Assembly (NCBI GenBank): GCA_038747705.1
Contig: JBCDJP010000002.1
Location: forward strand, 73,395-137,394
Source of the DNA: Verrucomicrobiota bacterium
Lineage (GTDB): Bacteria > Verrucomicrobiota > Verrucomicrobiia > Verrucomicrobiales > Akkermansiaceae
Length of the DNA: 64,000 bases
Direction: 5' to 3'
Shown here: positions 3 to 64,000 of the stretch, in pieces
How positions within the stretch are numbered: position 1 is the first letter of the stretch
Layout: every line of letters begins with the position of its first letter
Made by a program: the position numbers and the translations under genes
Notes under the pieces: generated by a model
The model's database searches: none
What the model saw: the letters and a program-made list of their open reading frames with translations, nothing else
Told to the model about the DNA's origin: nothing

Positions 3-2294
3 GTGACGATCACCGTCAATCCCGCGCCCGTGGTTGTGATCAGCAGCCCGACGGATGCCTCGACCGCCAATGAAGGGGACTCGGTGACTTTCACCGCCAC
101 CGCCAACGATCCGGAAGACGGGGATGTGGGTGCTTCGTTGGCCTGGAGTTCGAGTCTTGATGGTCCGATCGGAAGTGGCGCGAGTTTCGCCACGACAAGT
201 CTTGCGATTGGAACTCACGTCGTCACCGCGACCGCGACCGACGGCAATTCAGCAGCTGGCAGCACCACGGTGACGATCACCATTAATGCCAAGCCGGTGG
301 TTGCGATCACTGCCCCGACCGATGCCACGACGGTGGGCGAGGGGGATCCCGTGACTTTCACCGCAACTGCAACCGACTCGGAGGATGGAGACGTCACCGG
401 ATCACTGGCATGGGTTTCGGACCTCGATGGTTCCATCGGCAGTGGTGCGAACTTCGGGACGTCTGCGCTTTCAGCCGGAACGCACACGATCACCGCCACG
501 GCCACCGATGGCGACTCTGCCACGGGCAACGACTCGCTGACCCTCACCATCACCTCGAAACCGGTGGTTGCCATCAGTAGTCCGACGGATGCCTCGACGG
601 TCGACGAAGGGGATTCAGTGACTTTCACCGCAACGGCGACGGATGTCGAAGACGGTGATGTGAGCGCTTCCCTGGCCTGGGTCTCGAATGTCGATGGGTC
701 GATCGGAAGCGGAGCCAGCTTCAGTCTCTCAAGCCTGAGCGTGGGAACGCACACGGTCACGGCGACGGCAACCGACAGTAGCTCGGTGTCGGGAACCGAT
801 AGCATCACGATTACCGTGAACGCCAAGCCGGTGGTTGCGATCAGCAGCCCGACGGATGCGACCACGGTCAACGAGGGTGACTCGGTGACCTTCACGGCAA
901 CGGCCACGGACAACGAAGACGGCAATGTGGAAGTCTCACTTGCCTGGGTCTCGGACCTCGACGGTTCGATCGGAAGTGGCGCGACCTTCGACTCGTCGGT
1001 GCTGAGCCTCGGCACCCACACGATCACCGCGACGGCGACCGATGCCAACTTGGCGGAGGGAAGTGACTCCGTGACGATCACCATCAACGCCGAACCGGTG
1101 GTTGCGATCATCAGCCCGACCAATGCCTCCACCGTGGATGAAGGCGAGTCCGTGACATTCACGGCGACGGCCACGGACAACGAAGACGGCAATGTGGAAG
1201 TCTCCCTTGCCTGGGTCTCGAACCTCGACGGTTCGATCGGCAGTGGCGCGACCTTCGACTCTTCGGCGCTGAGCGTCGGCACCCACACGATCACGGCGAC
1301 GGCGACCGATGCGAACTCGGCGGAGGGAAGTGATTCGGTGACGATTACGATCAACGCCGAACCGGTGGTTGTGATCAGCAGTCCGCTGGATGCCACGACG
1401 GTGAATGAAGGTGATTCGGTGAGCTTTGCAGCGACGGCGACGGACACCGAGGACGGTGACCTTGCTGCTTCGCTTGGCTGGAGCTCGGATCTTGATGGCC
1501 CGATTGGCACCGGTGGTTCCTTCAGCTCCTCGGCCCTTTCCGTTGGAACCCACGTCATCACCGCCATGGTGACTGACGCCAACTCTGCGGAAGGCAGTGA
1601 TTCAGTGATGATCACGATCAATGCCAAGCCGGTGGTCGCGATCACCAGCCCGACGGATGCCTCGACGGTGGACGAGGGTGACTCGGTGACCTTCGCCGCG
1701 ACGGCCACGGACAACGAAGACGGTGACCTTGCCGCCTCGCTGACCTGGACTTCGGATCTCGATGGAGTGATCGGAAGTGGTGCAAGCTTCAGCACCTCTG
1801 GGCTTTCCGACGGCACCCATACGGTTACCGCATCCGTGACCGACGCCAACTCGGCAAGTGGAAGTGATGCCCTGACGATCACGGTCAACCCGAGCCCGTA
1901 TCCCGATGGCTACCTCGACTGGCTGAACGGCTTCGGTCTTTCCGGCGATCCCGACGGAGACAGCGATGTCGGAGGAATCAGCAACCTCGATGAGTTCCTT
2001 CTTGGTCTCGATCCGACCGACCCTCTGGATGACAAGGAGTTCCGGATTATTCCGTCGACCGGAGCAGGTTCGATCTTACTGGCATTGCCCGAGCTTGTAG
2101 CGACCGGAAGTTTCCATCTTCACGAAAGTGAGAACCTCGATGACCTCGAAGACATCGGAAACCGGATCGACACGATCACGCCGCTGGAGATCGAGGCGAT
2201 GACGCCCACAGAGCGCCAGAACACGGTCATTGAAGTGCCGATCACGAAGGAGCGAGCCTTCTTCATTCTCATCTTCGAGCCGACTCCCTGGTAA
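3..2294 (+). CDS. Large surface/secreted protein, 5'-truncated by the window: 7 tandem Ig-like (Big/PKD-type) repeats plus a C-terminal DPDGD/GLDPT domain
   Basis: 763-aa ORF with 89-aa repeats (PVVAISSPTD...TFTATATD.EDG...LAW.S.LDG.IG.G...GTHTITATATD), then YLDWL..FG..GDPDGDSD..GISNLDEFLLGLDPTD. Confidence 0.85.
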   Translation: MTITVNPAPVVVISSPTDASTANEGDSVTFTATANDPEDGDVGASLAWSSSLDGPIGSGASFATTSLAIGTHVVTATATDGNSAAGSTTVTITINAKPVVAITAPTDATTVGEGDPVTFTATATDSEDGDVTGSLAWVSDLDGSIGSGANFGTSALSAGTHTITATATDGDSATGNDSLTLTITSKPVVAISSPTDASTVDEGDSVTFTATATDVEDGDVSASLAWVSNVDGSIGSGASFSLSSLSVGTHTVTATATDSSSVSGTDSITITVNAKPVVAISSPTDATTVNEGDSVTFTATATDNEDGNVEVSLAWVSDLDGSIGSGATFDSSVLSLGTHTITATATDANLAEGSDSVTITINAEPVVAIISPTNASTVDEGESVTFTATATDNEDGNVEVSLAWVSNLDGSIGSGATFDSSALSVGTHTITATATDANSAEGSDSVTITINAEPVVVISSPLDATTVNEGDSVSFAATATDTEDGDLAASLGWSSDLDGPIGTGGSFSSSALSVGTHVITAMVTDANSAEGSDSVMITINAKPVVAITSPTDASTVDEGDSVTFAATATDNEDGDLAASLTWTSDLDGVIGSGASFSTSGLSDGTHTVTASVTDANSASGSDALTITVNPSPYPDGYLDWLNGFGLSGDPDGDSDVGGISNLDEFLLGLDPTDPLDDKEFRIIPSTGAGSILLALPELVATGSFHLHESENLDDLEDIGNRIDTITPLEIEAMTPTERQNTVIEVPITKERAFFILIFEPTPW
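18..1886 (+). repeat. Seven tandem 267-bp coding repeats
   Basis: Repeat starts at 18, 285, 552, 819, 1086, 1353 and 1620; units 4 and 5 are nearly identical at DNA level. Confidence 0.9.
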
Positions 2295-4450: not shown

Positions 4451-5356
4451 ATGGTTGCAGCCATTCGTCAGAAAGTTGACCCCGCGGATCTCAGTTTGCG
4501 GAAGGGGATCATCCTCGCCGGCGGTACCGGAAGCCGCTTGTGGCCGATGACCCATTCGGTCAGCAAGCAGTTGATCCCGGTTTACGACAAACCCATGATC
4601 TACTACCCGCTGACCGTGCTGATGCTCGCCGGCGTCCGGGAAGTACTGGTGATTTCGACGCCCAAGGATCTTCCCGAGTTTGAGAAGCTGATGGGCGACG
4701 GGAGTCAGTGGGGTCTCGAGATCAGCTATGCCGAGCAGCCGAAGCCCGAAGGACTCGCCCAGGCCTTCCTCATCGGTGAGGAATTCATCGACGGTAAGCC
4801 CGTCTGCCTCGTATTGGGGGACAATCTCTTCTACGGGCACGAACTCGGCACCTCGCTGCTTGCGGCTTCCCGCAGGACGAGCGGTGCCACCGTTTTCGGC
4901 TATCACACCCAGAGTCCGGAGCAGTACGGAGTGGTTGAGTTCGATGGTGATGGGAAGGTCATCTCGATCGAGGAAAAGCCTTCGCAACCCAAGTCGAACT
5001 ACGCCGTTCCGGGAATCTACTTCTATGACAAGCAAGTGGTCGACCTGACCAAGAATCTCAAGCCCTCGGCCCGCGGTGAGCTCGAGATCACCGACTTGAA
5101 CCGGGTCTATCTTGAGAAGGGTGAGTTGCGGGTCGAACTGCTCGGACGCGGCACGACCTGGCTCGATACCGGCACGCCGGACGATCTCGCCAATGCCACT
5201 CAGTTCGTCCAGGTAATCCAGCACCGTCAGGGACTCAAGATCGCCTGCCCCGAGGAGGTGGCCTTCACCCAGGGCCGGATCGACCGACCGACCCTCCAGC
5301 AATCCATCGACAAGTATTCCAAGACCGACTACGGCCAATATCTCGCAACACTCTAA
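4451..5356 (+). CDS. rfbA: Glucose-1-phosphate thymidylyltransferase
   Basis: KGIILAGGTGSRLWP, KQLIPVYDKPMIYYPL, SARGELEITD, WLDTGT; start moved to ATG 4451, just after the rfbB stop. Confidence 0.96.
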   Translation: MVAAIRQKVDPADLSLRKGIILAGGTGSRLWPMTHSVSKQLIPVYDKPMIYYPLTVLMLAGVREVLVISTPKDLPEFEKLMGDGSQWGLEISYAEQPKPEGLAQAFLIGEEFIDGKPVCLVLGDNLFYGHELGTSLLAASRRTSGATVFGYHTQSPEQYGVVEFDGDGKVISIEEKPSQPKSNYAVPGIYFYDKQVVDLTKNLKPSARGELEITDLNRVYLEKGELRVELLGRGTTWLDTGTPDDLANATQFVQVIQHRQGLKIACPEEVAFTQGRIDRPTLQQSIDKYSKTDYGQYLATL

Positions 5357-5371: not shown

Positions 5372-6124
5372 ATGAGTGAAAACCAACCGAATCCCTGGTC
5401 GGGCCTCCGATCAGATGCGCGCTCCCGTCTGGAGACGCGCGATTATTCAAGCCTCGACCCGGGAGCGCAGCTCTCCGGCCCCGGGATGCCTTCCGGCCAG
5501 GTCCTTGCCCGCAAGGACGAACTCGCCGACCACTGGATTCCCGGCGTGGAGTTCTTTTCGCGACGCGTCTTTCAGCAGAACGGCCGCGGCTACTTCGCCG
5601 AACTCACCCGCCTCAATGAAGGCAAGCTCGACGAGCTGGGGCTCTCTCCGAAACAGTGGGCTTCCGCTCTGATGCATCGGGATAGTGCCAAGGGTTTCCA
5701 CATCCATCCGCCGCACATTCCCGAGGGCGTCGATCCCGTGGACTGGTTCCACGACCTATACGTCAACAATCCCGAGGACTACGGGAAGCGCCCCTACGAC
5801 AAGGAGCAGTGGGACGTGATGTTTTTCCTCACCGGCATCTGTGAGATGATTCTCGTCGATGAACGGCAGGGTATGCCCCGACGGGTGATGCGCTTCACCA
5901 TCGCCGGCGACAGCCGCCCGGGGCCGGACAACATGGCCGTGGTCATCCCACCCGGAGTCGGACACGCGCTGCGTGACATTGGAAACGAGGACCTGATCAT
6001 GGTTTACGGTACCAGCACGACCTTCAATCCCGCCTGGGAGGGGAGAATTGCCAGCGACATTGAGAAGGCACCGTTGCCGCTCGACTGGGACCGCTACCTT
6101 GCCGACGGATCCACCGCTTGCTGA
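5372..6124 (+). CDS. rfbC: RmlC-like cupin, probable dTDP-4-dehydrorhamnose 3,5-epimerase (divergent, enlarged)
   Basis: GRGYFAEL, KGFHIH, VVIPPGVGHA cupin motifs; completes the rml pathway in this operon. Confidence 0.65.
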   Translation: MSENQPNPWSGLRSDARSRLETRDYSSLDPGAQLSGPGMPSGQVLARKDELADHWIPGVEFFSRRVFQQNGRGYFAELTRLNEGKLDELGLSPKQWASALMHRDSAKGFHIHPPHIPEGVDPVDWFHDLYVNNPEDYGKRPYDKEQWDVMFFLTGICEMILVDERQGMPRRVMRFTIAGDSRPGPDNMAVVIPPGVGHALRDIGNEDLIMVYGTSTTFNPAWEGRIASDIEKAPLPLDWDRYLADGSTAC

Positions 6125-6259
6125 AGCCGAGTCTCTCCCCCTGATATCCAACCTCCCCCCCATGATGTGAGTTGACCCTCGTCGACGCGATCCCTTCCGT
6201 ATGCATCGCGGGACCACCCCAACCGTTTTCCCATCCCTGAAACCAACACCCCCTGAAGT

Positions 6260-6955
6260 ATGAAGAACAACAATGATACCAACAATCGTGTCGCTCCTGA
6301 AGCGGCACCGTCGGTCCGGGCTTCGGCACGCATGTGCCGCTTGTTCCGGAGTCTCCCCGTGTCGTCGCTCGGCGTCGGCATGCTCGCAATGATGATGGCG
6401 CTCTTCCTGAACAGCTGCGCTACCGACGATCCCGGCACCATTCCCGCCGAGGCCTTCGTTGCCCGACCCAGCGGAACCCTGAACGCCGGAGATGTCATCC
6501 GCGTCAGCTATCCCGGCGCCCCTGAACTCAACTTGACGCAGAAGGTCCAGCCCAACGGCCGGGTCAGCCTGCCGATGATCGGCGACGTAAAGGCATCCGG
6601 CCGCAATGTCGGAAGCTTCCAGTCCTCGCTTGAGGGCATGTATGCCGAACACCTCACCGATCCCAAGGTGCTCGTCTCGCTCGAGACTCCCGCTTCGTCG
6701 GTTTATGTTTCGGGTGAAGTGCGCGATCCCGGCAAGATCTCACTTGATCGCCCGATGACTGCGATCGAAGCGATCATGGAGGCCGGTGGCTTCTCGAAGT
6801 ACGCCAATGCCAAGCGCGTCTATGTGGTTCGCAACGAGAATGGCAAGCACCAGCGCTACGTGCTCAATGTCAGCGACACGCTGTCCGGCACCAACAGCAA
6901 CGCCTTCTACCTGCGCCCGTACGACGTTGTCTACGTCAAGGAAAGCAACTGGTGA
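6260..6955 (+). CDS. Polysaccharide biosynthesis/export lipoprotein (Wza/Poly_export + SLBB)
   Basis: Lipobox LNSC, GDVIRVSY, PNGRVSLPMIGDVKASG, VYVSGEVRDPG, AIMEAGGFS, LRPYDVVYV; start uncertain. Confidence 0.88.
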   Translation: MKNNNDTNNRVAPEAAPSVRASARMCRLFRSLPVSSLGVGMLAMMMALFLNSCATDDPGTIPAEAFVARPSGTLNAGDVIRVSYPGAPELNLTQKVQPNGRVSLPMIGDVKASGRNVGSFQSSLEGMYAEHLTDPKVLVSLETPASSVYVSGEVRDPGKISLDRPMTAIEAIMEAGGFSKYANAKRVYVVRNENGKHQRYVLNVSDTLSGTNSNAFYLRPYDVVYVKESNW

Positions 6956-6968
6956 TCTTCGGATCACG

Positions 6969-7011
6969 GAACGACCGGTCAAGGCGGGAGCTGATCCCGC
7001 TGCGACCGTTC
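6969..7011. terminator. Possible bidirectional terminator hairpin between convergent genes
   Basis: GCGGGA-GCTGA-TCCCGC core with outer GGTC/GACC and GAACG/CGTTC pairing; no clear U-tract. Confidence 0.4.
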
Positions 7012-7027
7012 GGTTTCCATCCCTGAT

Positions 7028-8335
7028 TCAGGGATCGGGCGTGACCAGCTTGTAGAACCGCTTCGGCTGGCCTTCAGCGCCCGGATCATCGACGGTGATC
7101 GTGCCGCCATGATTCGTCTCGGTATCGACGAGCGTCCAGTTCTCAAGGTCGCTCGAGGCGAAGACGCTCACGTCCTTGCCGAGTTCACCGGAGAGGTTGA
7201 AGGTGATTAAATGGTTGCTGCCGATGCTCATGCTGGTCACCCGGAAGGGGAATTCATGCACGATGAGTTCCGCGGGACCGGCGGTCTTGATGACCGTGTC
7301 GCTCCAGATGAAGACCGAATAGTTTGCCGCGTCGTCGAAATCGGCTCCCGAAACCCGCAGTGAGGGTCCGGTTTCACCGTTGATGGCAAGGCCATCCTTG
7401 ACCCATTGATACTGAATCGGCCCGGTGGCTGCAGCGATGACGTTGAAGGTGGCGACGCCTCCGACGTGCGTCGATTGATCCGCGGGAGGCCCGGTGATGG
7501 CAAGGACGTCTCCGCTCCTTGGAAGATCATCGTTTGGAACAAAGTCCGGATCGGTGCAGAGCACGATCCGGTCGAGCTGGACCGCTGCTTCGCGACTCCG
7601 GAACCTGATCGTATGGGGACCCGGCGCCAGATTGAAGTTCCTGACCTGTCCCGACTGGGTTTCAATGCGTTGCCACACCCAATCGTCCGAGTAGACCAGA
7701 GGTGGCGGGCTGGAGTCGCCATAAACGTGAAAGACCTCGTCGACGCCACCATCCATCGAAACAAAGTAAGAGTCACTTCCCGAGCTGGGTGCCTTGACCC
7801 GGCACCAGACCTGATAGGGGGCATTGATCTGCGACTCAAAACTGATTTCCGTAAAACCTTCCTGAGTGATGGTGTCGTCCTGAACCCAGGAGACGTCGCC
7901 CGCTCCCTGAACAACCATCGGGGCATTGATGACCCCGTCCTCGGCCTCGACAAGAATCAGGCGGCCATCGATCGACTCGCCGGCGCCGTCAACAAAGGTG
8001 ACCGCGATCTCAGCCGAAAATGCGCTCTCGAGCCCGATCGTGTTGTAGGCGGTTACCGCGCAGTAGTAGGTTTCCCCGAGATCCAGATCGGCAATCTCCA
8101 TCTCCGGGCTGCTGCCGGCATTGAGGACCGAAGTGTAGTTGCCGCTTTCGGAACCGAAATGAACGTTGTAGCCACTGATGTTCGGTTCCGGATTCGGATC
8201 CCAGATCAGGGTGACGCTTCCCGTGCTCGATCCCGTGCGGGCATTCGCGGTGAGGGCGATGCCGACGGTGAACAGGGTGAGAAGCAGGAATTTTAGGGCG
8301 AGCACAGCCCTATTACAGGGTGATTGGGACAGCAC
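7028..8335 (-). CDS. Secreted multidomain protein: fibronectin type III, CBM-like beta-sandwich, Ig-like domain, C-terminal S-x-DL-x-x-W/RFY domain
   Basis: Signal peptide; VTLIWDPNPE..ISGY..H..YYCAVTAYN (FN3); VEAEDG; GPIQYQWVKDG (Ig); ASSDLENW...KRFYKL. Confidence 0.8.
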   Translation of the reverse strand: MLSQSPCNRAVLALKFLLLTLFTVGIALTANARTGSSTGSVTLIWDPNPEPNISGYNVHFGSESGNYTSVLNAGSSPEMEIADLDLGETYYCAVTAYNTIGLESAFSAEIAVTFVDGAGESIDGRLILVEAEDGVINAPMVVQGAGDVSWVQDDTITQEGFTEISFESQINAPYQVWCRVKAPSSGSDSYFVSMDGGVDEVFHVYGDSSPPPLVYSDDWVWQRIETQSGQVRNFNLAPGPHTIRFRSREAAVQLDRIVLCTDPDFVPNDDLPRSGDVLAITGPPADQSTHVGGVATFNVIAAATGPIQYQWVKDGLAINGETGPSLRVSGADFDDAANYSVFIWSDTVIKTAGPAELIVHEFPFRVTSMSIGSNHLITFNLSGELGKDVSVFASSDLENWTLVDTETNHGGTITVDDPGAEGQPKRFYKLVTPDP

Positions 8336-8340
8336 AAAGA

Positions 8341-8430
8341 TTAGTATTAGTTAATTTTAATAAAAAATAAAGCTAAAATTTAATCAAATCTGACAATTTG
8401 GTTATAGAAGCTGAATTTCTTATGAATTGT
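8341..8430. promoter_or_regulatory. Very AT-rich segment in the divergent promoter region
   Basis: 9 of 60 G+C in 8341-8400 by hand count, with A-tracts, between two divergent genes. Confidence 0.6.
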
Positions 8431-8642
8431 GCCGGCGGGGAGGTCAGGAAACCGGCGAGGTTCCTGCCAGACGTGCGGGAAGCTACAGGTTTGCTGACGG
8501 TTGACAACCAGAAGATTTACGCAGTTGTACACCCATTGAAATGCAATGGATACAGGGCTTTCGGGTCCATTTTGGCCGCTGCTGAAGGGGGCGTTGAGGA
8601 GCGAATTCGAGCAGGTATCCGGAGGTCCTTCTTCGGTCGGAA

Positions 8643-10747
8643 TTGGCAATGATTGGGATGCCAGAAGTGCTGGCCGCCGTGGCGGCGTTTGCGGCGGTCG
8701 CCATTGGTTTGGCGGCGGTGGTTCGGAAAGGAACTTCAGCCCCGAGCTGGTGCTTCCTCGTCGGCATGGTGCTGCTCGCCGTCGAGGTCGTCCTCGAAAC
8801 CCTGGCCAGTCGTTCGGTGCCAATCGTCGCCGCCGAGCGCATGGTGACGGTGCTTTTGGTCAAGTCGCTGCTTCCCGGCGTCTGGCTGGCTTTCAGTCTG
8901 CTCTACTGCCGGGGCGGAAAGCCGGACCTGATCCGGCGCTGGCGCTGGGCCTTGGTGGGGGCCTTCTTCATTCCTCCGCTGTGGGTGCTGGGATTCCGCA
9001 GCCATCTGGTAGGGCCGACCGATAGAGGCGTCGAGTTCCTGCCTGCGGCAGCTTTCCTGCTGGTGCTGGTCCTGCTGGCGACCGTGGCCATCCTCGTCAA
9101 TCTCGAGCGGACCTTCAGTTCGACGGCCGGTATCACCCGTTGGCGGATCAAGTATCTGCTGCTCGGCGCGGCGGTGATCTTCGGGGTCAAGATTTACGCG
9201 TTGAGTCAGGCACTGCTCTTCTCGGGCAACGGCACGGCAATCCCGGTGGTATCGTCGGTTGGGTTGATTGTCGGCTGCATCCTCATGACCGTCGGCTACG
9301 TTCGCCAGGGCTTCGGGGACTTCGATATCCATCCCTCAAGGACCGTTCTTCAGGGTTCGCTGACCTTCCTTTTCGCCGGCGGGTATCTTGCGCTGGTCGG
9401 GCTGCTCGCGCAGTGGGTTGAACGGCAGGGAGGCGCCGGTAGTTTTCCCTTGCAGGCCTTCATCGTCCTGATCGGGGTTACCGGTCTGGCGCTGATGCTT
9501 CTTTCCGATCGGGCACGAACTGGTCTCCAACGTTTCGTCAGTCGACACTTCCGTCGGCCAGAGCACGATTTCCGAAGCATCTGGTCGGAGTTCACCCATC
9601 GCACCACGGGCCTGGAAGAGCCCGGGGAAATCTGTGCCTCCACCGGCCGACTGATCGCGGGAACTTTCTCGGCGCTGAACGTCACCGTCTTCCTGCGACC
9701 TGAGGAAAGTGGGGAGCTGGTCTGGGTGTCGACCACATCGGAAGACGGCTGCAGTGAGGGCACTTGCGGGAGGATCAGCATGGAGAATGAGGCAGTGTCG
9801 CGGATCCTGCAGATTGGTCAGGCCTTCAATCTCGAGTCGTGTAAGGATCCCTGGGCTCTTGAACTCAAGGCCGCCTGCCCGAAGCAATTCAGTCACGGAG
9901 GTGACCGCACGGTGGTTCCCGTGGTCAGCGGTGATCGCTTTGTAGGAGTGATCCTGCTCGCGGATCGGGTCAATGGGGTTCCCTACACGGTGGAGGAACT
10001 CGAGTTGCTCGACTGCATTGCCGACCAGCTGGCGGTGGCCCTGCAGAACCGGATCCTCACCGAGGAAGTGATGCGTGCGCGGGAGCTCGAGGCATTCCGG
10101 ACCATGTCGACCTTCTTTGTTCACGACCTGAAGAATGCGGCAAACCGGCTGAACCTGATGCTTCAGAATCTGCCTCAGCATTTCGACGACCCGGAGTTTC
10201 GCGAAGATGCGCTCCGGGGTGTTGGCAAGACGGTGGATCGCATCAACGGATTGATCGTGAAGCTCGGGGCCTTGCGGCAGGACCTTGAACTCAGTCCCGC
10301 CGACACCGATCTGAGCGAGCTGGTGCGGGATGTGATCGGTACGCTGGAGGATGAAATGCCTTTTGAGGAAGTGGTTGATGAGCTCGGTCCGGTGCCGGCG
10401 GTGCCGCTGGATCGCGAGCAGATGCGAAGCGTGATCACCAACCTGGTCATCAATGCAGGTGAAGCGGTGAATGGAGATGGCAGGCTGAAGCTGGCGACCA
10501 TGAGCAGCCCCGGCCGGGTGACCCTGACCGTCAGCGACAACGGCTGCGGGATGGAGCGAAACTTTGTCCGGAAGAAGCTCTATCGTCCGTTTTCCTCAAC
10601 CAAGAGTGCTGGCCTGGGCATTGGCATGTTTCAATGCAAGCGGATCATCGAAGCCCACAATGGAACAATCCATGCCGAGACTGAACCCGGCGAGGGTACG
10701 ACCTTCCGAATCACCCTTCCTGCGCCGGGTGAGACAACTGACTCCTG

Positions 10748-10748
<1 letters not shown>
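8643..10748 (+). CDS. prsK: PEP-CTERM system sensor histidine kinase
   Basis: About 8 N-terminal TM segments, GAF domain, FFVHDLKN H-box, NLVINAGEA, SDNGCGM, GLGIGMFQCK; directly upstream of a sigma-54 response regulator. Confidence 0.88.
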
Positions 10749-12097
<1,349 letters not shown>

Positions 12098-31883: not shown

Positions 31884-31884
31884 G

Positions 31885-32056
31885 AGTGAGGATTTAGTGG
31901 CGAGTAATCAGAGACCAGCTTGCCGTACCGGCCTGTCCGCCGTAGCCTCGGCGAAGGAGGAAGCTTCGGCATAGGCGGGTGACCAGTGATGGGAGGGTTG
32001 GACGCATGGGCGACTGAAAGTCGCCTCGCCCCCTCATGGCGCTCGGAGAGCGCTAC
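31885..32056. repeat. Composite intergenic repeat island: 7-mers, CCTGTCCGCCGTAGCC element, two GNA-triloop hairpins
   Basis: AGTGGCG-AGTAATC-AGAGACC; GGCGACT-GAA-AGTCGCC at 32009-25; GCGCTC-GGA-GAGCGC at 32039-53, reading GTAG-first on the minus strand. Confidence 0.7.
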
Positions 32057-32856: not shown

Positions 32857-32868
32857 GGAACGGAGAAT

Positions 32869-32896
32869 CCAGAGACCAGCGACCAGAGACCAGAGA
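32869..32896. repeat. Heptamer tandem repeat (CCAGAGA)x4
   Basis: CCAGAGA CCAGCGA CCAGAGA CCAGAGA. Confidence 0.8.
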
Positions 32897-33801: not shown

Positions 33802-33890
33802 GGCCTACTGCTAAGCTAAAAGCTAAACAGGCGGGTGCGCCACCGGATTTCGGCTTTTCCCCGTGGATTCACGAATCTAAACCGGTTCCG

Positions 33891-62541: not shown

Positions 62542-64000
62542 CTAAGCCTTCGCCTGTGCAAGTTCTTGGGAATCTGCGGAGAGTGGCCGGTGGGTCAGCT
62601 CCGCGGCGAGGAAGGGTGCCGTGGCGGATCGTTTGGATTTCGAAACTTTCTCAGGGGTGCCCTGGGCGACGATGCGTCCGCCCTTCTCGCCGGCTTCGGG
62701 GCCGAGGTCGAGGATCCAGTCGGCCTCGGCGGCGACCGCCATGTGGTGTTCGATGACGACCACGGTGTGGCCTTCGTCGACGAGTCGGTGGAGGACGTCA
62801 ATCAGTTTGCGGACGTCCTCGAGGTGCAGTCCGACGGTGGGTTCTTCGATCAGATAGAGGTTGGAGGATTGGATGCCGGACAGCTGGGCTTTCCGGGAGC
62901 GGCCGCGGATGAGTTGGGACACGAGTTTGATCCGTTGGGCTTCGCCCCCGGAGAGGGTTGGAGAGGGTTGACCAAGCTGGAGGTAGCCGAGGCCGGTATC
63001 GGCGAGCAGTCTCAGCGGGGTGGCGATGCGGGGCTGCGATTCGAAGAATTCGGCGGCCTGCTCGATGGTCAGGTTGAGGATCTCCCCGATATTCTTTTCG
63101 CGGAAGCGTACCTCGAGGGTGGCGGGGTTATAGCGGAGTTCGTTGCAGGTCTCGCAGGGAATCCAGGTGGTGGGCAGGAAGTCCATCTCGAGCTTCACCC
63201 GACCGTTGCCCTCGCAATCGGGGCAGCGGCCCTTGCCGGTGTTGAAGGAGAAGCGGGAAGCTTCGTAGCCCCGCACGCGCGACTCGGGGAGTTGAGCGAA
63301 GAGCTTGCGGATGTCGTCGAAGATCTTGACGTAGGTGGCCGGGCACGAGCGCGAAGTCTTGCCGATCGGGGACTGGTCGACTTCGTAGCAATGCTTGAGG
63401 GGTTTGAAGCCAGTGGCCTTCTTGAATGGCCGGTCGGTGGTCTTCTTGGAAGCGGCAGCCACGGCCACGCATTGATGCATGAGGGTGGACTTTCCGGAGC
63501 CGGAGATTCCGGTGAGCACGGTCAGGCGACCGAGCGGGATGGCGACGTCGAGGTCCTTGAGATTGTTCGCGAGGCAACCGGTGAGCTTCAGCTGCGGGTG
63601 GCTCTTCGGGATCGAGCGGCGCTTGCCGCGGGTCGGGTGGGCGATGGGATGGGTGAGCGCCTTGTAGGTGGGGGATGCGGCCTGCTGCGCAGGAGTGTCG
63701 AGTGAGTAGTGAGGAGTGAGCAGTGATGATTTGGCGGCTGCGTCGCGTTTGTTGGACCTTCTGCTCGATGTTTTACTACTGCTAACTGCTAACTGCTCAC
63801 TGCCCACTCGGGGCGGAGCCCCGCAATAGACGACTTCGCCGCCGAGTCGGCCGGCGCCGGGGCCGAGGTCGATCAGGTGGTCGGCGCGGGCGATCGTGTC
63901 CTCGTCGTGTTCGACCACGACCAGTGAGTTGCCGCGGTCGCGCAAGGCAAAGAGGGTGTTGAGCAGGGCGGTGTTGTCGCGCGGATGGAGGCCGATGGTG
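62542..64000 (-). CDS. uvrA: Excinuclease ABC subunit A, C-terminal part (5'-truncated by the window)
   Basis: TIGLHPRD, VVVEHD, GPGAG..GG, GISGSGKS, FSFN..GRC..C, LSGGEAQRIKL, EEPTVGLH; frame stays open to the window edge. Confidence 0.97.
   Translation of the reverse strand, partial: TIGLHPRDNTALLNTLFALRDRGNSLVVVEHDEDTIARADHLIDLGPGAGRLGGEVVYCGAPPRVGSEQLAVSSSKTSSRRSNKRDAAAKSSLLTPHYSLDTPAQQAASPTYKALTHPIAHPTRGKRRSIPKSHPQLKLTGCLANNLKDLDVAIPLGRLTVLTGISGSGKSTLMHQCVAVAAASKKTTDRPFKKATGFKPLKHCYEVDQSPIGKTSRSCPATYVKIFDDIRKLFAQLPESRVRGYEASRFSFNTGKGRCPDCEGNGRVKLEMDFLPTTWIPCETCNELRYNPATLEVRFREKNIGEILNLTIEQAAEFFESQPRIATPLRLLADTGLGYLQLGQPSPTLSGGEAQRIKLVSQLIRGRSRKAQLSGIQSSNLYLIEEPTVGLHLEDVRKLIDVLHRLVDEGHTVVVIEHHMAVAAEADWILDLGPEAGEKGGRIVAQGTPEKVSKSKRSATAPFLAAELTHRPLSADSQELAQAKA
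63700..63823. repeat. Heptamer-repeat hairpin plus GGA-triloop hairpin inside the uvrA reading frame
   Basis: (AGTGAGN)x4 ... (CT[AC]ACTG)-type x5 inverted arms; CGGGGC-GGA-GCCCCG at 63809-23. Confidence 0.8.

Follow-up and report, generated by a model that had tools for sequence, protein, structure and literature searches.

Why should a DNA repair gene of a free-living bacterium carry, in frame and apparently translated, a palindrome made of seven-nucleotide repeats? The question is raised by a 64,000-nucleotide stretch of a marine verrucomicrobial genome (GenBank assembly GCA_038747705.1, contig JBCDJP010000002.1, positions 73,395 to 137,394; hereafter the window, 61.5% GC), in which a heptamer-repeat hairpin of about 115 bases lies in frame inside the minus-strand gene uvrA. 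An earlier note on this DNA had interpreted the hairpin as an in-frame insertion akin to the Rickettsia palindromic elements (RPEs), an interpretation that is partly supported by the analysis described here. The answer that we consider somewhat more probable than not is that an RPE-like palindromic element is tolerated as a protein linker and is remodelled and homogenised by copying at the DNA level, with any function unproven.

The window contains the 3' part of uvrA, its last 485 codons (62545-63999, minus strand), which encode the end of the first nucleotide-binding domain (NBD-I) of unit 2, a linker and NBD-II before the gene runs off the window end. The best protein match is the excinuclease ABC subunit A of Haloferula luteola (Verrucomicrobia), at 75% identity, and this was also the best identity among the dozen or so verrucomicrobial loci obtained by scanning GTDB-representative contigs. 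Full-length orthologues are single open reading frames (ORFs) of 1,877-2,006 residues in which two complete UvrA units are fused head to tail, an arrangement shared with Prosthecobacter and Roseibacillus. The insertion site is in unit 2, where it is preceded by GGE[IV]VYxG, the motif that closes the first ATPase domain, while SPT[YL]RAL and then the second ATPase domain come after it. In structural terms it maps after GGEVVxxG at the end of NBD-I and before S.TG.YL, at approximately residues 595-629 of the Geobacillus UvrA structure 2r6f, whose residues 629-954 align to positions 136-466 of the query. The variable linker here spans 48 codons (APPRVGSEQ...DTPAQQAA; 63676-63819, minus strand), as opposed to 10 residues in outgroups, and the insert adds about 38 residues to the NBD-I/NBD-II boundary. 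The minus-strand frame stays open throughout (...GGEVVYCGAPPRVGSEQLAVSSSKTSSRRSNKRDAAAKSSLLTPHYSLDTPAQQAASPTYKAL...), so that the earlier description of a stop-free hairpin of heptamers, extra to an ordinary UvrA and encoding the peptide given there, holds. The conserved open frame by itself suggests that the segment is translated. An AlphaFold2 model of the fragment (51-sequence alignment) has a mean predicted local distance difference test score (pLDDT) of 86.5; residues 72-97, in the insert, fall below 50 and have no secondary structure, while the flanks exceed 90. The insert is predicted to be a disordered loop between well-folded domains.

The hairpin itself is composed of two inverted arrays and a loop. 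In the mRNA sense, the 5' arm (63775-63809, minus strand) consists of five heptamers, (G)AGTGGGC AGTGAGC AGTTAGC AGTTAGC AGTAGT, that encode VGSEQLAVSSS; the plus strand reads ACTACTG CTAACTG CTAACTG CTCACTG CCCACTC. The 46-nt loop (63729-63774, minus strand) is A/G-rich on the sense strand and encodes the basic peptide KTSSRRSNKRDAAAK. The 3' arm (63694-63728, minus strand) is made of the five heptamers CATCACT GCTCACT CCTCACT ACTCACT CGACACT, which encode SSLLTPHYSLDT, and on the plus strand appears as five AGTG-cored heptamers, AGTGTCG AGTGAGT AGTGAGG AGTGAGC AGTGATG, to which the heptamers of the 5' arm are complementary. Tandem Repeats Finder reported two period-7 arrays (63701-63726 and 63778-63803), and when periods 4-11 were compared only period 7 gave arrays in the window. 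An inverted-repeat search returned arms of 26-32 nt with 78-85% complementarity; overall the arms are about 71-85% complementary, and the copy is therefore partly decayed. The motif AGTGNNNAGTGNNNAGTG, allowing at most one mismatch, has four matches in the 64-kb window, all within the hairpin, compared with 0.16 expected. Folded as RNA, the hairpin reaches -43.3 kcal/mol (z = -2.5 against dinucleotide shuffles). A covariance model, R1, was built from the orthologues only, leaving the window out, and it recovered positions 63695-63810 on the minus strand over its full length (49.7 bits, E = 1.7e-11); together with the RNA fold, this match delimits the element. We define the hairpin class as at least three AGTG-cored heptamers, a loop of 10-50 nt and a mirrored run of CACT-ended heptamers. 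The window copy, with five plus five units and its 46-nt loop, falls within this class but does not have the AGTGGAA unit at the loop edge that was used in the pattern of the metagenome scan described below. The possibility of an assembly artefact, raised in the earlier note, is ruled out because Logan contigs from two independent marine-metagenome runs reproduce positions 63300-64000 with no indels, one being identical and the other differing by 4 SNPs.

Several other identities for the segment were considered and rejected. A 6-bp mini-stem, CGGGGC-GGA-GCCCCG, does exist at 63809-63823 as had been reported, abutting the hairpin, but it results from the C-G-A-P-P codons and cannot be counted as part of the element, as it is not conserved and orthologues read GGAAAGCCGCCGCAAG there. 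An intrinsic terminator or an internal start was discarded, as neither a U-run nor a start codon follows the hairpin. An intein or intron was likewise rejected, given that 38 residues are too few for an intein, that Cys/Ser...Asn junctions are lacking and that an Rfam scan of the element matched no family. A peptide-profile search of 5.8 billion proteins returned nothing at E<=10, not even UvrA orthologues; the query was too short and the search had no power.

The make-up of the insert points to DNA rather than protein as the level at which it arose. GC content at third codon positions (GC3) is 0.51 in the 39 insert codons and 0.82 in the other 446 codons of the gene, where the lowest value for any other 39-codon window is 0.64. 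The insert uses codons that are nearly absent from the rest of the gene (AGT, TCA and AAA three times each, TTA once). Because of this codon make-up and the 7-nt period, we take the insert to be of DNA-level origin and not to have been created by protein selection, which agrees with what had been proposed from the period.

Comparison with relatives reveals how old the element is. The earlier note had anticipated a clean presence or absence of 108-114 bp among close relatives, and none was found. The close relatives, 68-81% identical, all carry a homologous five-unit hairpin at the same site, and the linker is 24-51 residues long in every member of a Luteolibacter/Haloferula-like clade versus 10 in outgroups; in place of the expected clean indel there is an ancient, homologous and continually remodelled element that has five units and shared outer units. 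A hairpin of the same design was found in 11 loci, and the frame is kept in these 11 orthologues with linkers of 96-153 nt. The left arms illustrate the likeness: AGTGCCG AGTGAGA AGTGCCA AGTGAGC AGTGGAA in L204, AGTGCCG GGTGATC AGTTAGC AGTGATC AGTGGAA in L205, AGTGGGC AGTGAGC AGTCATC AGTGATC GGTGGAA in L207 and AGTGGGC AGTGAGC AGTTAGC AGTTAGC AGTAGTA in the window, and in every case a loop comes next and then the mirrored right arm, which ends in ...CACTCGGCACT. Each of the five left-arm units of the orthologues thus has its counterpart in the window 5' arm. Nine of the 11 have conserved the arrangement in five units together with the outer units and the loop-edge AGTGGAA. From these alignments, the window hairpin is best described as a homologous, vertically inherited and partly decayed member of the series, not a recent private insertion. 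Another copy, in L004, is degenerate. In two loci an extra segment of about 50 nt (MEHSDMDGLENSNLPSN / MERSDIEAQTSTNLASN) is nested in the right arm of the same hairpin (L002 10340-10395 and L006 10757-10810), an insertion within an insertion.

Pairing between the arms has been kept while the sequence changed. Minimum free energy z-scores of the 11 hairpins range from -1.7 (the window, the weakest) to -7.1. Arms pair better with their own partner than with that of another species (-43.6 versus -36.8 kcal/mol, permutation p < 1e-4). Seven of the hairpins align cleanly, with five left-arm units and 25 consensus pairs of which 94% of cells are paired, and compensatory change on both sides is seen in 5 of the 25 pairs, for instance AGA/TCT versus ATC/GAT. 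The covariation score is 0.196 compared with 0.099 in shuffles, none of 500 shuffles reaching the observed score. This arm covariation can be called supportive rather than decisive.

The earlier note treated the hairpin as a single insertion, a view that did not survive the full-length protein alignment, in which the fused double UvrA has clade-specific inserts at up to six linkers, heptamer arrays or hairpins among them. Site 1 follows LPWFSNLQS; site 2 is the unit-1 linker homologous to the site of the window hairpin; site 3 is the junction of units 1 and 2; site 4 follows HDIDVxVA in unit 2; site 5 is the site of the window hairpin; and site 6 precedes NLYLIEEP. At site 6 (GRS..K..NLYLIEEP) heptamer arrays occur in L003, L005 and L006, and the window has no period-7 signal there. 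The gene is a hot spot. Period-7 arrays number 28 in 64.5 kb of uvrA and 2 in 174 kb of other DNA, the latter being all other DNA collected for the clade and the window (binomial p = 3e-14), or 4.3 and 0.11 arrays for every 10 kb. In 74 loci from outside the clade there is no such enrichment of period 7. Covariance-model matches with E < 0.01 in 325 kb all lie in uvrA, at sites 2, 4 and 5. The covariance model was used in place of a generic hairpin scan (14-nt stems, at most 2 mismatches), which proved too noisy in 61% GC DNA and was informative only for stems of at least 19 nt.

Within a genome, different sites tend to hold the same variant. Sites 4 and 5 of L003 share AGTGAGA arms and the loop GCGAAGCAA; sites 2 and 4 of L006 share AGTGTTC / GAAAACT; sites 2 and 5 of L005 both have a nested CCACCCCCGGCGAAGCCGC. 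In L008, sites 4 and 5 share a palindrome that is unrelated to the heptamer hairpin and encodes S[AT]GILPA..GVPPKS, and in L009 sites 2, 4 and 5 share RSVGV[SP]PTS. The same behaviour can be seen in the gene of the window. Two further copies of arm plus loop are found on a contig of 1,564 nt from the source metagenome whose depth matches (18.6 vs 16.6), the first equal to 63708-63751 with 6 differences and the second to 63723-63749 exactly (27 nt, which takes in the 3' part of the loop). The flank of the first copy translates to ...SLLTPHSALGTALERA (HSALGTALERA), which is site 4 (cf. HSSLGTQLSRAL in L003), and the window's own uvrA accordingly has at least three copies of one variant. Loop types also cut across the protein tree, with L206 and L207 sharing one loop and L003, L006 and L205 another. 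The recurrence of a variant at several sites, together with loop types that do not follow the tree, suggests that sequence is exchanged between sites by gene conversion or re-copying; since unrelated palindromes occupy the same sites, occasional replacement by whichever small palindrome is active in a lineage is suggested as well.

These other palindromes deserve a description of their own. Small palindromes translated at uvrA linkers were observed in L007 (3064-3204), L008 (5381-5461 and 6299-6391) and L009 (about 2750-2914, 4646-4672 and 5561-5653). Two examples are GGAGCGCCGGCATCCTGCCGGC...GATTTTGGCGTCCCGCCGAAATC, which encodes GSAGILPADFGVPPKS, and CGTGGGCGTCTCGCCCACG, which encodes RSVGVSPTS. 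The GCGGGCATCCTGCCC hairpin is also present at L008 1-79, outside the uvrA ORF. In addition, near-perfect palindromes with 27-34-nt arms (e.g., CAAGGAGGGGCGTGCCCTATGGCCGCC) lie at the uvrA stop codon or a few hundred bases from it, at L001 7804-7903 and 12188-12288, L004 5973-6054, L005 11952-12101 and L007 4532-4613. One of them recurs 4 kb away within its locus, and they resemble dispersed elements of the repetitive extragenic palindromic (REP) kind.

Hairpins of this class are not confined to uvrA when the search is widened. A scan of metagenome contigs for AGTGNNNAGTGGAA-N(10-40)-CACTNNNCACTNNNCACT matched at least 120 stretches, where about one chance match was expected by our estimate, and 80 of these loci were looked at more closely. 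They range from 29 to 71% GC, and none of the 80 is in uvrA. Their arms have 3-7 mirrored heptamers with triplets that differ from genome to genome. Most are intergenic, and by crude ORF calls many lie 5-30 nt from a candidate start codon. Copies in frame were found in genes for MBOAT (two genes), MMPL, PglZ and alpha/beta-hydrolase proteins, where translation of (AGTGGAA)n/(TTCCACT)n yields the peptides SGKWKVESGK...FHFPLSTFH. The parallel with RPEs drawn in the earlier note is thus apt, as members of one class are mostly intergenic and yet in frame in unrelated genes. A literature search of limited scope found no account of hairpins formed by inverted arrays of heptamers, of the peptides that they encode or of inserts of this kind in uvrA, and the AGTG-heptamer hairpin class is apparently undescribed. 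Two side observations can be added. In two unrelated contigs (L088 7903-7948, 48% GC, and L107 1211-1277, 50% GC) an (AGTGGAA)n hairpin sits at the same position of an MBOAT/AlgI-like gene, after ..FICLDKLL, a coincidence that reflects either shared descent or a recurrent target. An MMPL-family transporter gene (L099 1198-3561) has two translated heptamer hairpins and a tandem heptamer array that encodes LLTPSLLTPSLLTP.

How, then, did the hairpin come to be in uvrA, and why has it stayed? In the reading that we favour, the element would be a small palindromic DNA of the form (AGTKNNN)5, loop, (NNNMACT)5, that is, an AGTG/CACT core with a variable triplet. It would have been acquired in frame by an ancestor of the Luteolibacter/Haloferula-like Verrucomicrobia, entering the surface linker between the first and second ATPase domains in unit 2 of the fused double UvrA. 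Its extra residues would be read through as a disordered Ser/Lys/Arg-rich loop, tolerated because the site is a domain boundary, and it would persist through DNA-level processes rather than protein selection. Copies at several linkers would swap sequence by non-allelic gene conversion or re-copying, giving a genome-specific variant at several sites. The arms may be held complementary by intrastrand templated correction of quasi-palindromes, by weak selection on structure or by both. Unit number (through slippage), loops and nested inserts would turn over, always by multiples of three overall. Translation, the copying mechanism and the absence of a dedicated function are the parts of this scheme that we infer. 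An indispensable function is argued against by the decay of the window copy, the unrelated palindromes in sister lineages and the outgroups that have no insert.

A number of observations weigh against this reading and must be set beside it. Inspection of the window and of sites 4 and 5 of L003 revealed no target-site duplication flanking the element, and no associated transposase was seen, although no search was aimed at transposases. Beyond uvrA, the covariance model detected no AGTG hairpin in the remaining 62.5 kb of the window or in flanking DNA of relatives totalling about 110 kb, and any genome-wide mobility in these organisms would be hypothetical. The arm covariation comes from few and related sequences and may represent one or two independent switches. 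Five units, outer AGTGCCG...CGGCACT and a loop starting with GGA have been kept across lineages only 73-81% identical in protein, which would fit purifying selection on structure. A purely neutral view leaves this long-kept design unexplained, and equally the fact that stems are near-perfect in most orthologues; nor does permissiveness alone suffice to explain the concentration, roughly 38-fold, in a single gene.

These last points lead to the strongest alternative, which we nonetheless consider rather unlikely: that the hairpin is a selected cis-acting structure of uvrA mRNA or DNA, either a ribosome pause at the domain boundaries of a 6-kb ORF or the binding site of a putative heptamer-binding factor that would also act on the arrays beside start codons, and that the peptide is a tolerated by-product. 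Covarying arms, stems with z down to -7, the layout and loop-edge unit held in 9 of 11 orthologues and the match between sites and domain boundaries are all what such a structure would give. Heptamer arrays that adjoin the murI and protease start codons of the window, the metagenome hairpins close to candidate starts and published proposals of regulatory heptamer repeats near starts (PMC4679880; bioRxiv 10.1101/2022.06.06.494920) point in the same direction. However, the window copy is decayed (z = -1.7 to -2.5), L007, L008 and L009 hold unrelated palindromes at the same sites, L004 is degenerate, outgroups with the same double UvrA do without the insert, Rfam has no match and no start codon follows the intragenic hairpin. 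A bolder version, to which we give still less credence, has the (AGTKNNN)n-loop-(NNNMACT)n hairpins as a widespread family, self-propagating or protein-bound, whose cores are read by a heptamer-binding factor. Such hairpins would have been recruited at every domain boundary of the double uvrA as a conserved RNA/DNA structure that couples to the factor the synthesis or folding of the modules of this 2,000-residue protein, and concerted replacement of all sites in a genome would be co-evolution with the factor, not neutral conversion.

It is improbable, in our view, that the insert is kept for the protein, as a flexible basic linker that aids a very large DNA-binding ATPase and owes its periodicity to an origin by slippage. 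All variants do have loop peptides rich in Lys, Arg and Ser (RRSNKRD, GKPKKSAKQ, GRGKKKS, RKRKNA), every copy is stop-free and hydrophilic, and the inserts lie on predicted surface loops. Against this, codon usage is strongly atypical, the DNA has stayed complementary while the peptide shows little conservation, other elements of no relation to this one take its place at the same sites, UvrAs of insert-free outgroups function, and neither a 7-nt period nor an inverted repeat is expected from protein selection. Less likely by far is phase variation, in which repair would be switched off in some cells of a population by a frame shift whenever one 7-nt unit is added or lost: units with a length not divisible by three do lie in an ORF at up to six sites, and unit numbers differ between arms and species, but the tracts are short (3-5 imperfect units), the frameshifts and stop of L001-L003 lie outside them, and the two metagenome assemblies have no indel at the site, a test of low power since contigs hide rare variants. 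Chance similarity or a chimeric assembly, suggested at most by imperfect arms and a modest fold score in the window, is refuted by the independent assemblies, motif enrichment far above shuffles, the homologous hairpins of 11 orthologues and the covariance-model match to the window copy.

Other repeats in the window bear on the earlier statement that the same units occur between genes near 31885, 32869 and 33807, which proved only partly right. The intergenic segment 31884-32058, after the stop of a 522-residue FAD-dependent protein, opens with the AGTG-cored units AGTGAGG, AGTGGCG and AGTAATC (31884-31915), continues with the GC-rich stem-loops GCCTGTCCGCCGTAGCCTCGGCGAAGGAGGAAGCTTCGGCATAGGCGGG and GGGCGACTGAAAGTCGCC and folds to -80 kcal/mol (z = -2.1); a terminator pair and one more repeat element are both candidate explanations. 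The array at 33802-33830 (minus strand, TTTAGCT TTTAGCT TAGCAGT AGGCC; TTTAGCTTTTAGCTTAGCAGTAGGCC) lies directly against the ATG (33801) of the gene for a secreted, trypsin-like protease whose tail is PEP-CTERM-like, and shares the 10-mer TTAGCAGTAG with the 5' arm in uvrA. At 32864-32896 the minus-strand array is (TCTCTGG)4, or (CCAGAGA)4 on the plus strand, a unit different from that of the hairpin although the heptamer habit of the genome is the same, and it lies 8-40 nt upstream of the murI ATG (32856). Obvious Shine-Dalgarno sequences are absent from the murI and protease leaders. At the other end of the window (3-1855), a 267-nt tandem repeat of 6.9 copies and 74% identity presumably encodes the repeated domains, about 89 residues each, of a large surface protein.

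The host gene has further peculiarities among the loci collected. Betaproteobacterial UvrAs have inserts of up to about 100 residues in the NBD-I/NBD-II linker region; that of Polaromonas (L065) lies after S.TG.YL and has no evident heptamer periodicity, and those of Limnohabitans (L023, L027) were sized only. This fits a linker that is generally permissive and varies in other phyla too. Gene calls of uvrA are split by frameshifts in L001 and L002, whose contig names suggest a long-read assembler, and by one in-frame TAA in L003, in all cases outside heptamer tracts. The TAA (about 6825-6830) falls just before the CxxC zinc-finger motif (..NEELI*CPSCSGSR..) and could reflect a pseudogene, read-through or an error; to judge by its name (k141_...), the contig probably comes from MEGAHIT short-read assembly. 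A further UvrA paralogue is found nearby in some loci (L204 18174-20554; L006 at about 13900, where the double uvrA is 6065-11932). In L205 (1-10602), uvrA homology begins abruptly at residue ~1448 of the double protein, with phage-like genes (capsid, adaptor) before it and a type I restriction-modification system after; a prophage or island may have entered uvrA here, or the contig may be a chimera.

The system is of use beyond this gene. Through it the RPE phenomenon, the turning of selfish or structural DNA into protein, is extended to free-living Verrucomicrobia and, by way of the metagenome matches, to many other bacteria, and is linked to the surplus of heptanucleotide repeats in bacterial genomes, for which an explanation has long been wanting. 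As a single gene that has up to six linkers derived from heptamers, and variants specific to each genome at several sites, uvrA is a natural system in which to study hairpin spread, arm complementarity and the origin of disordered linkers. There is also a practical side, as heptamer inserts can inflate or split gene calls and create low-complexity 'domains', and strings such as SGKWKVESGK and FHFPLSTFH in protein databases can be recognised as translated heptamer hairpins. The main appeal, which we rate as moderate to high, lies in the concerted behaviour of several sites and in the exposure of a widespread heptamer-hairpin class.

Four known systems offer points of comparison. REPINs, or REP doublets forming hairpins (Bertels & Rainey 2011, PMC3116915), and MITEs (miniature inverted-repeat transposable elements) share with the uvrA element a hairpin architecture, about 60-120 nt in length, in which a short spacer separates two inverted halves, a high copy number in some genomes, lineage-specific variants and nested and clustered insertions. 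REPINs, however, are extragenic by definition, and an internal heptamer periodicity is no feature of REP sequences.

Heptamers in tandem are reportedly the hallmark of the short tandemly repeated repetitive (STRR) sequences of cyanobacteria, credited to Mazel in 1990. In Beggiatoaceae, Cyanobacteria and Bacteroidetes, direct repeats of TAACTGA have been described upstream of start codons; a few of the copies are translated (LSVISYQ), and one set in 170 is inverted, the others being direct repeats (MacGregor 2015, PMC4679880). As cited there from Mrazek 2007, among long simple repeats those of seven nucleotides are the most frequent in many bacteria, and in Nostoc, reporter expression is affected by heptamer repeats that lie near the starts of recF and recO (bioRxiv 10.1101/2022.06.06.494920). 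The likeness is plain: the unit is a tandem 7-mer, the plus-strand (C)TAACTG of the window is one base from TAACTGA, the arrays at 32864-32896 and 33802-33830 are directly upstream of start codons, and copies are occasionally translated, as LSVISYQ-type peptides there and as QLAVIS or LITDHSAL here. The uvrA element differs in being an inverted pair of arrays with a 25-35-bp stem deep inside an ORF rather than an intergenic direct repeat, and in having a unit that varies between genomes and even within one arm.

Templated correction of quasi-palindromes, said to have been worked out by Ripley in 1982 and in E. coli by the Lovett laboratory, is a mutational mechanism and not a family of elements. 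It offers a DNA-level route by which imperfect inverted repeats can turn or stay complementary without selection, as the covariation of the uvrA arms requires, and its action in uvrA would be in keeping with that pattern.

The closest likeness is to the RPEs, reportedly recognised by Ogata and colleagues in 2000 as in-frame palindromic insertions. In both cases a short, stop-free and stable hairpin repeat forms an extra segment, in frame, at surface or permissive positions of conserved genes, members of the class are also found between genes, and inheritance is vertical with decay in some lineages. In-frame insertions of a MITE-like kind have been reviewed (Delihas 2008, PMC2229807). Compared by anatomy, RPEs are unique palindromes, whereas the uvrA element is built of tandem heptamers, each a 4-nt core and a free triplet. 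Its host is a free-living marine verrucomicrobium and not an obligate intracellular Rickettsia, and, in a further departure from the RPEs, it occupies several sites of one gene and is homogenised among them within each genome.

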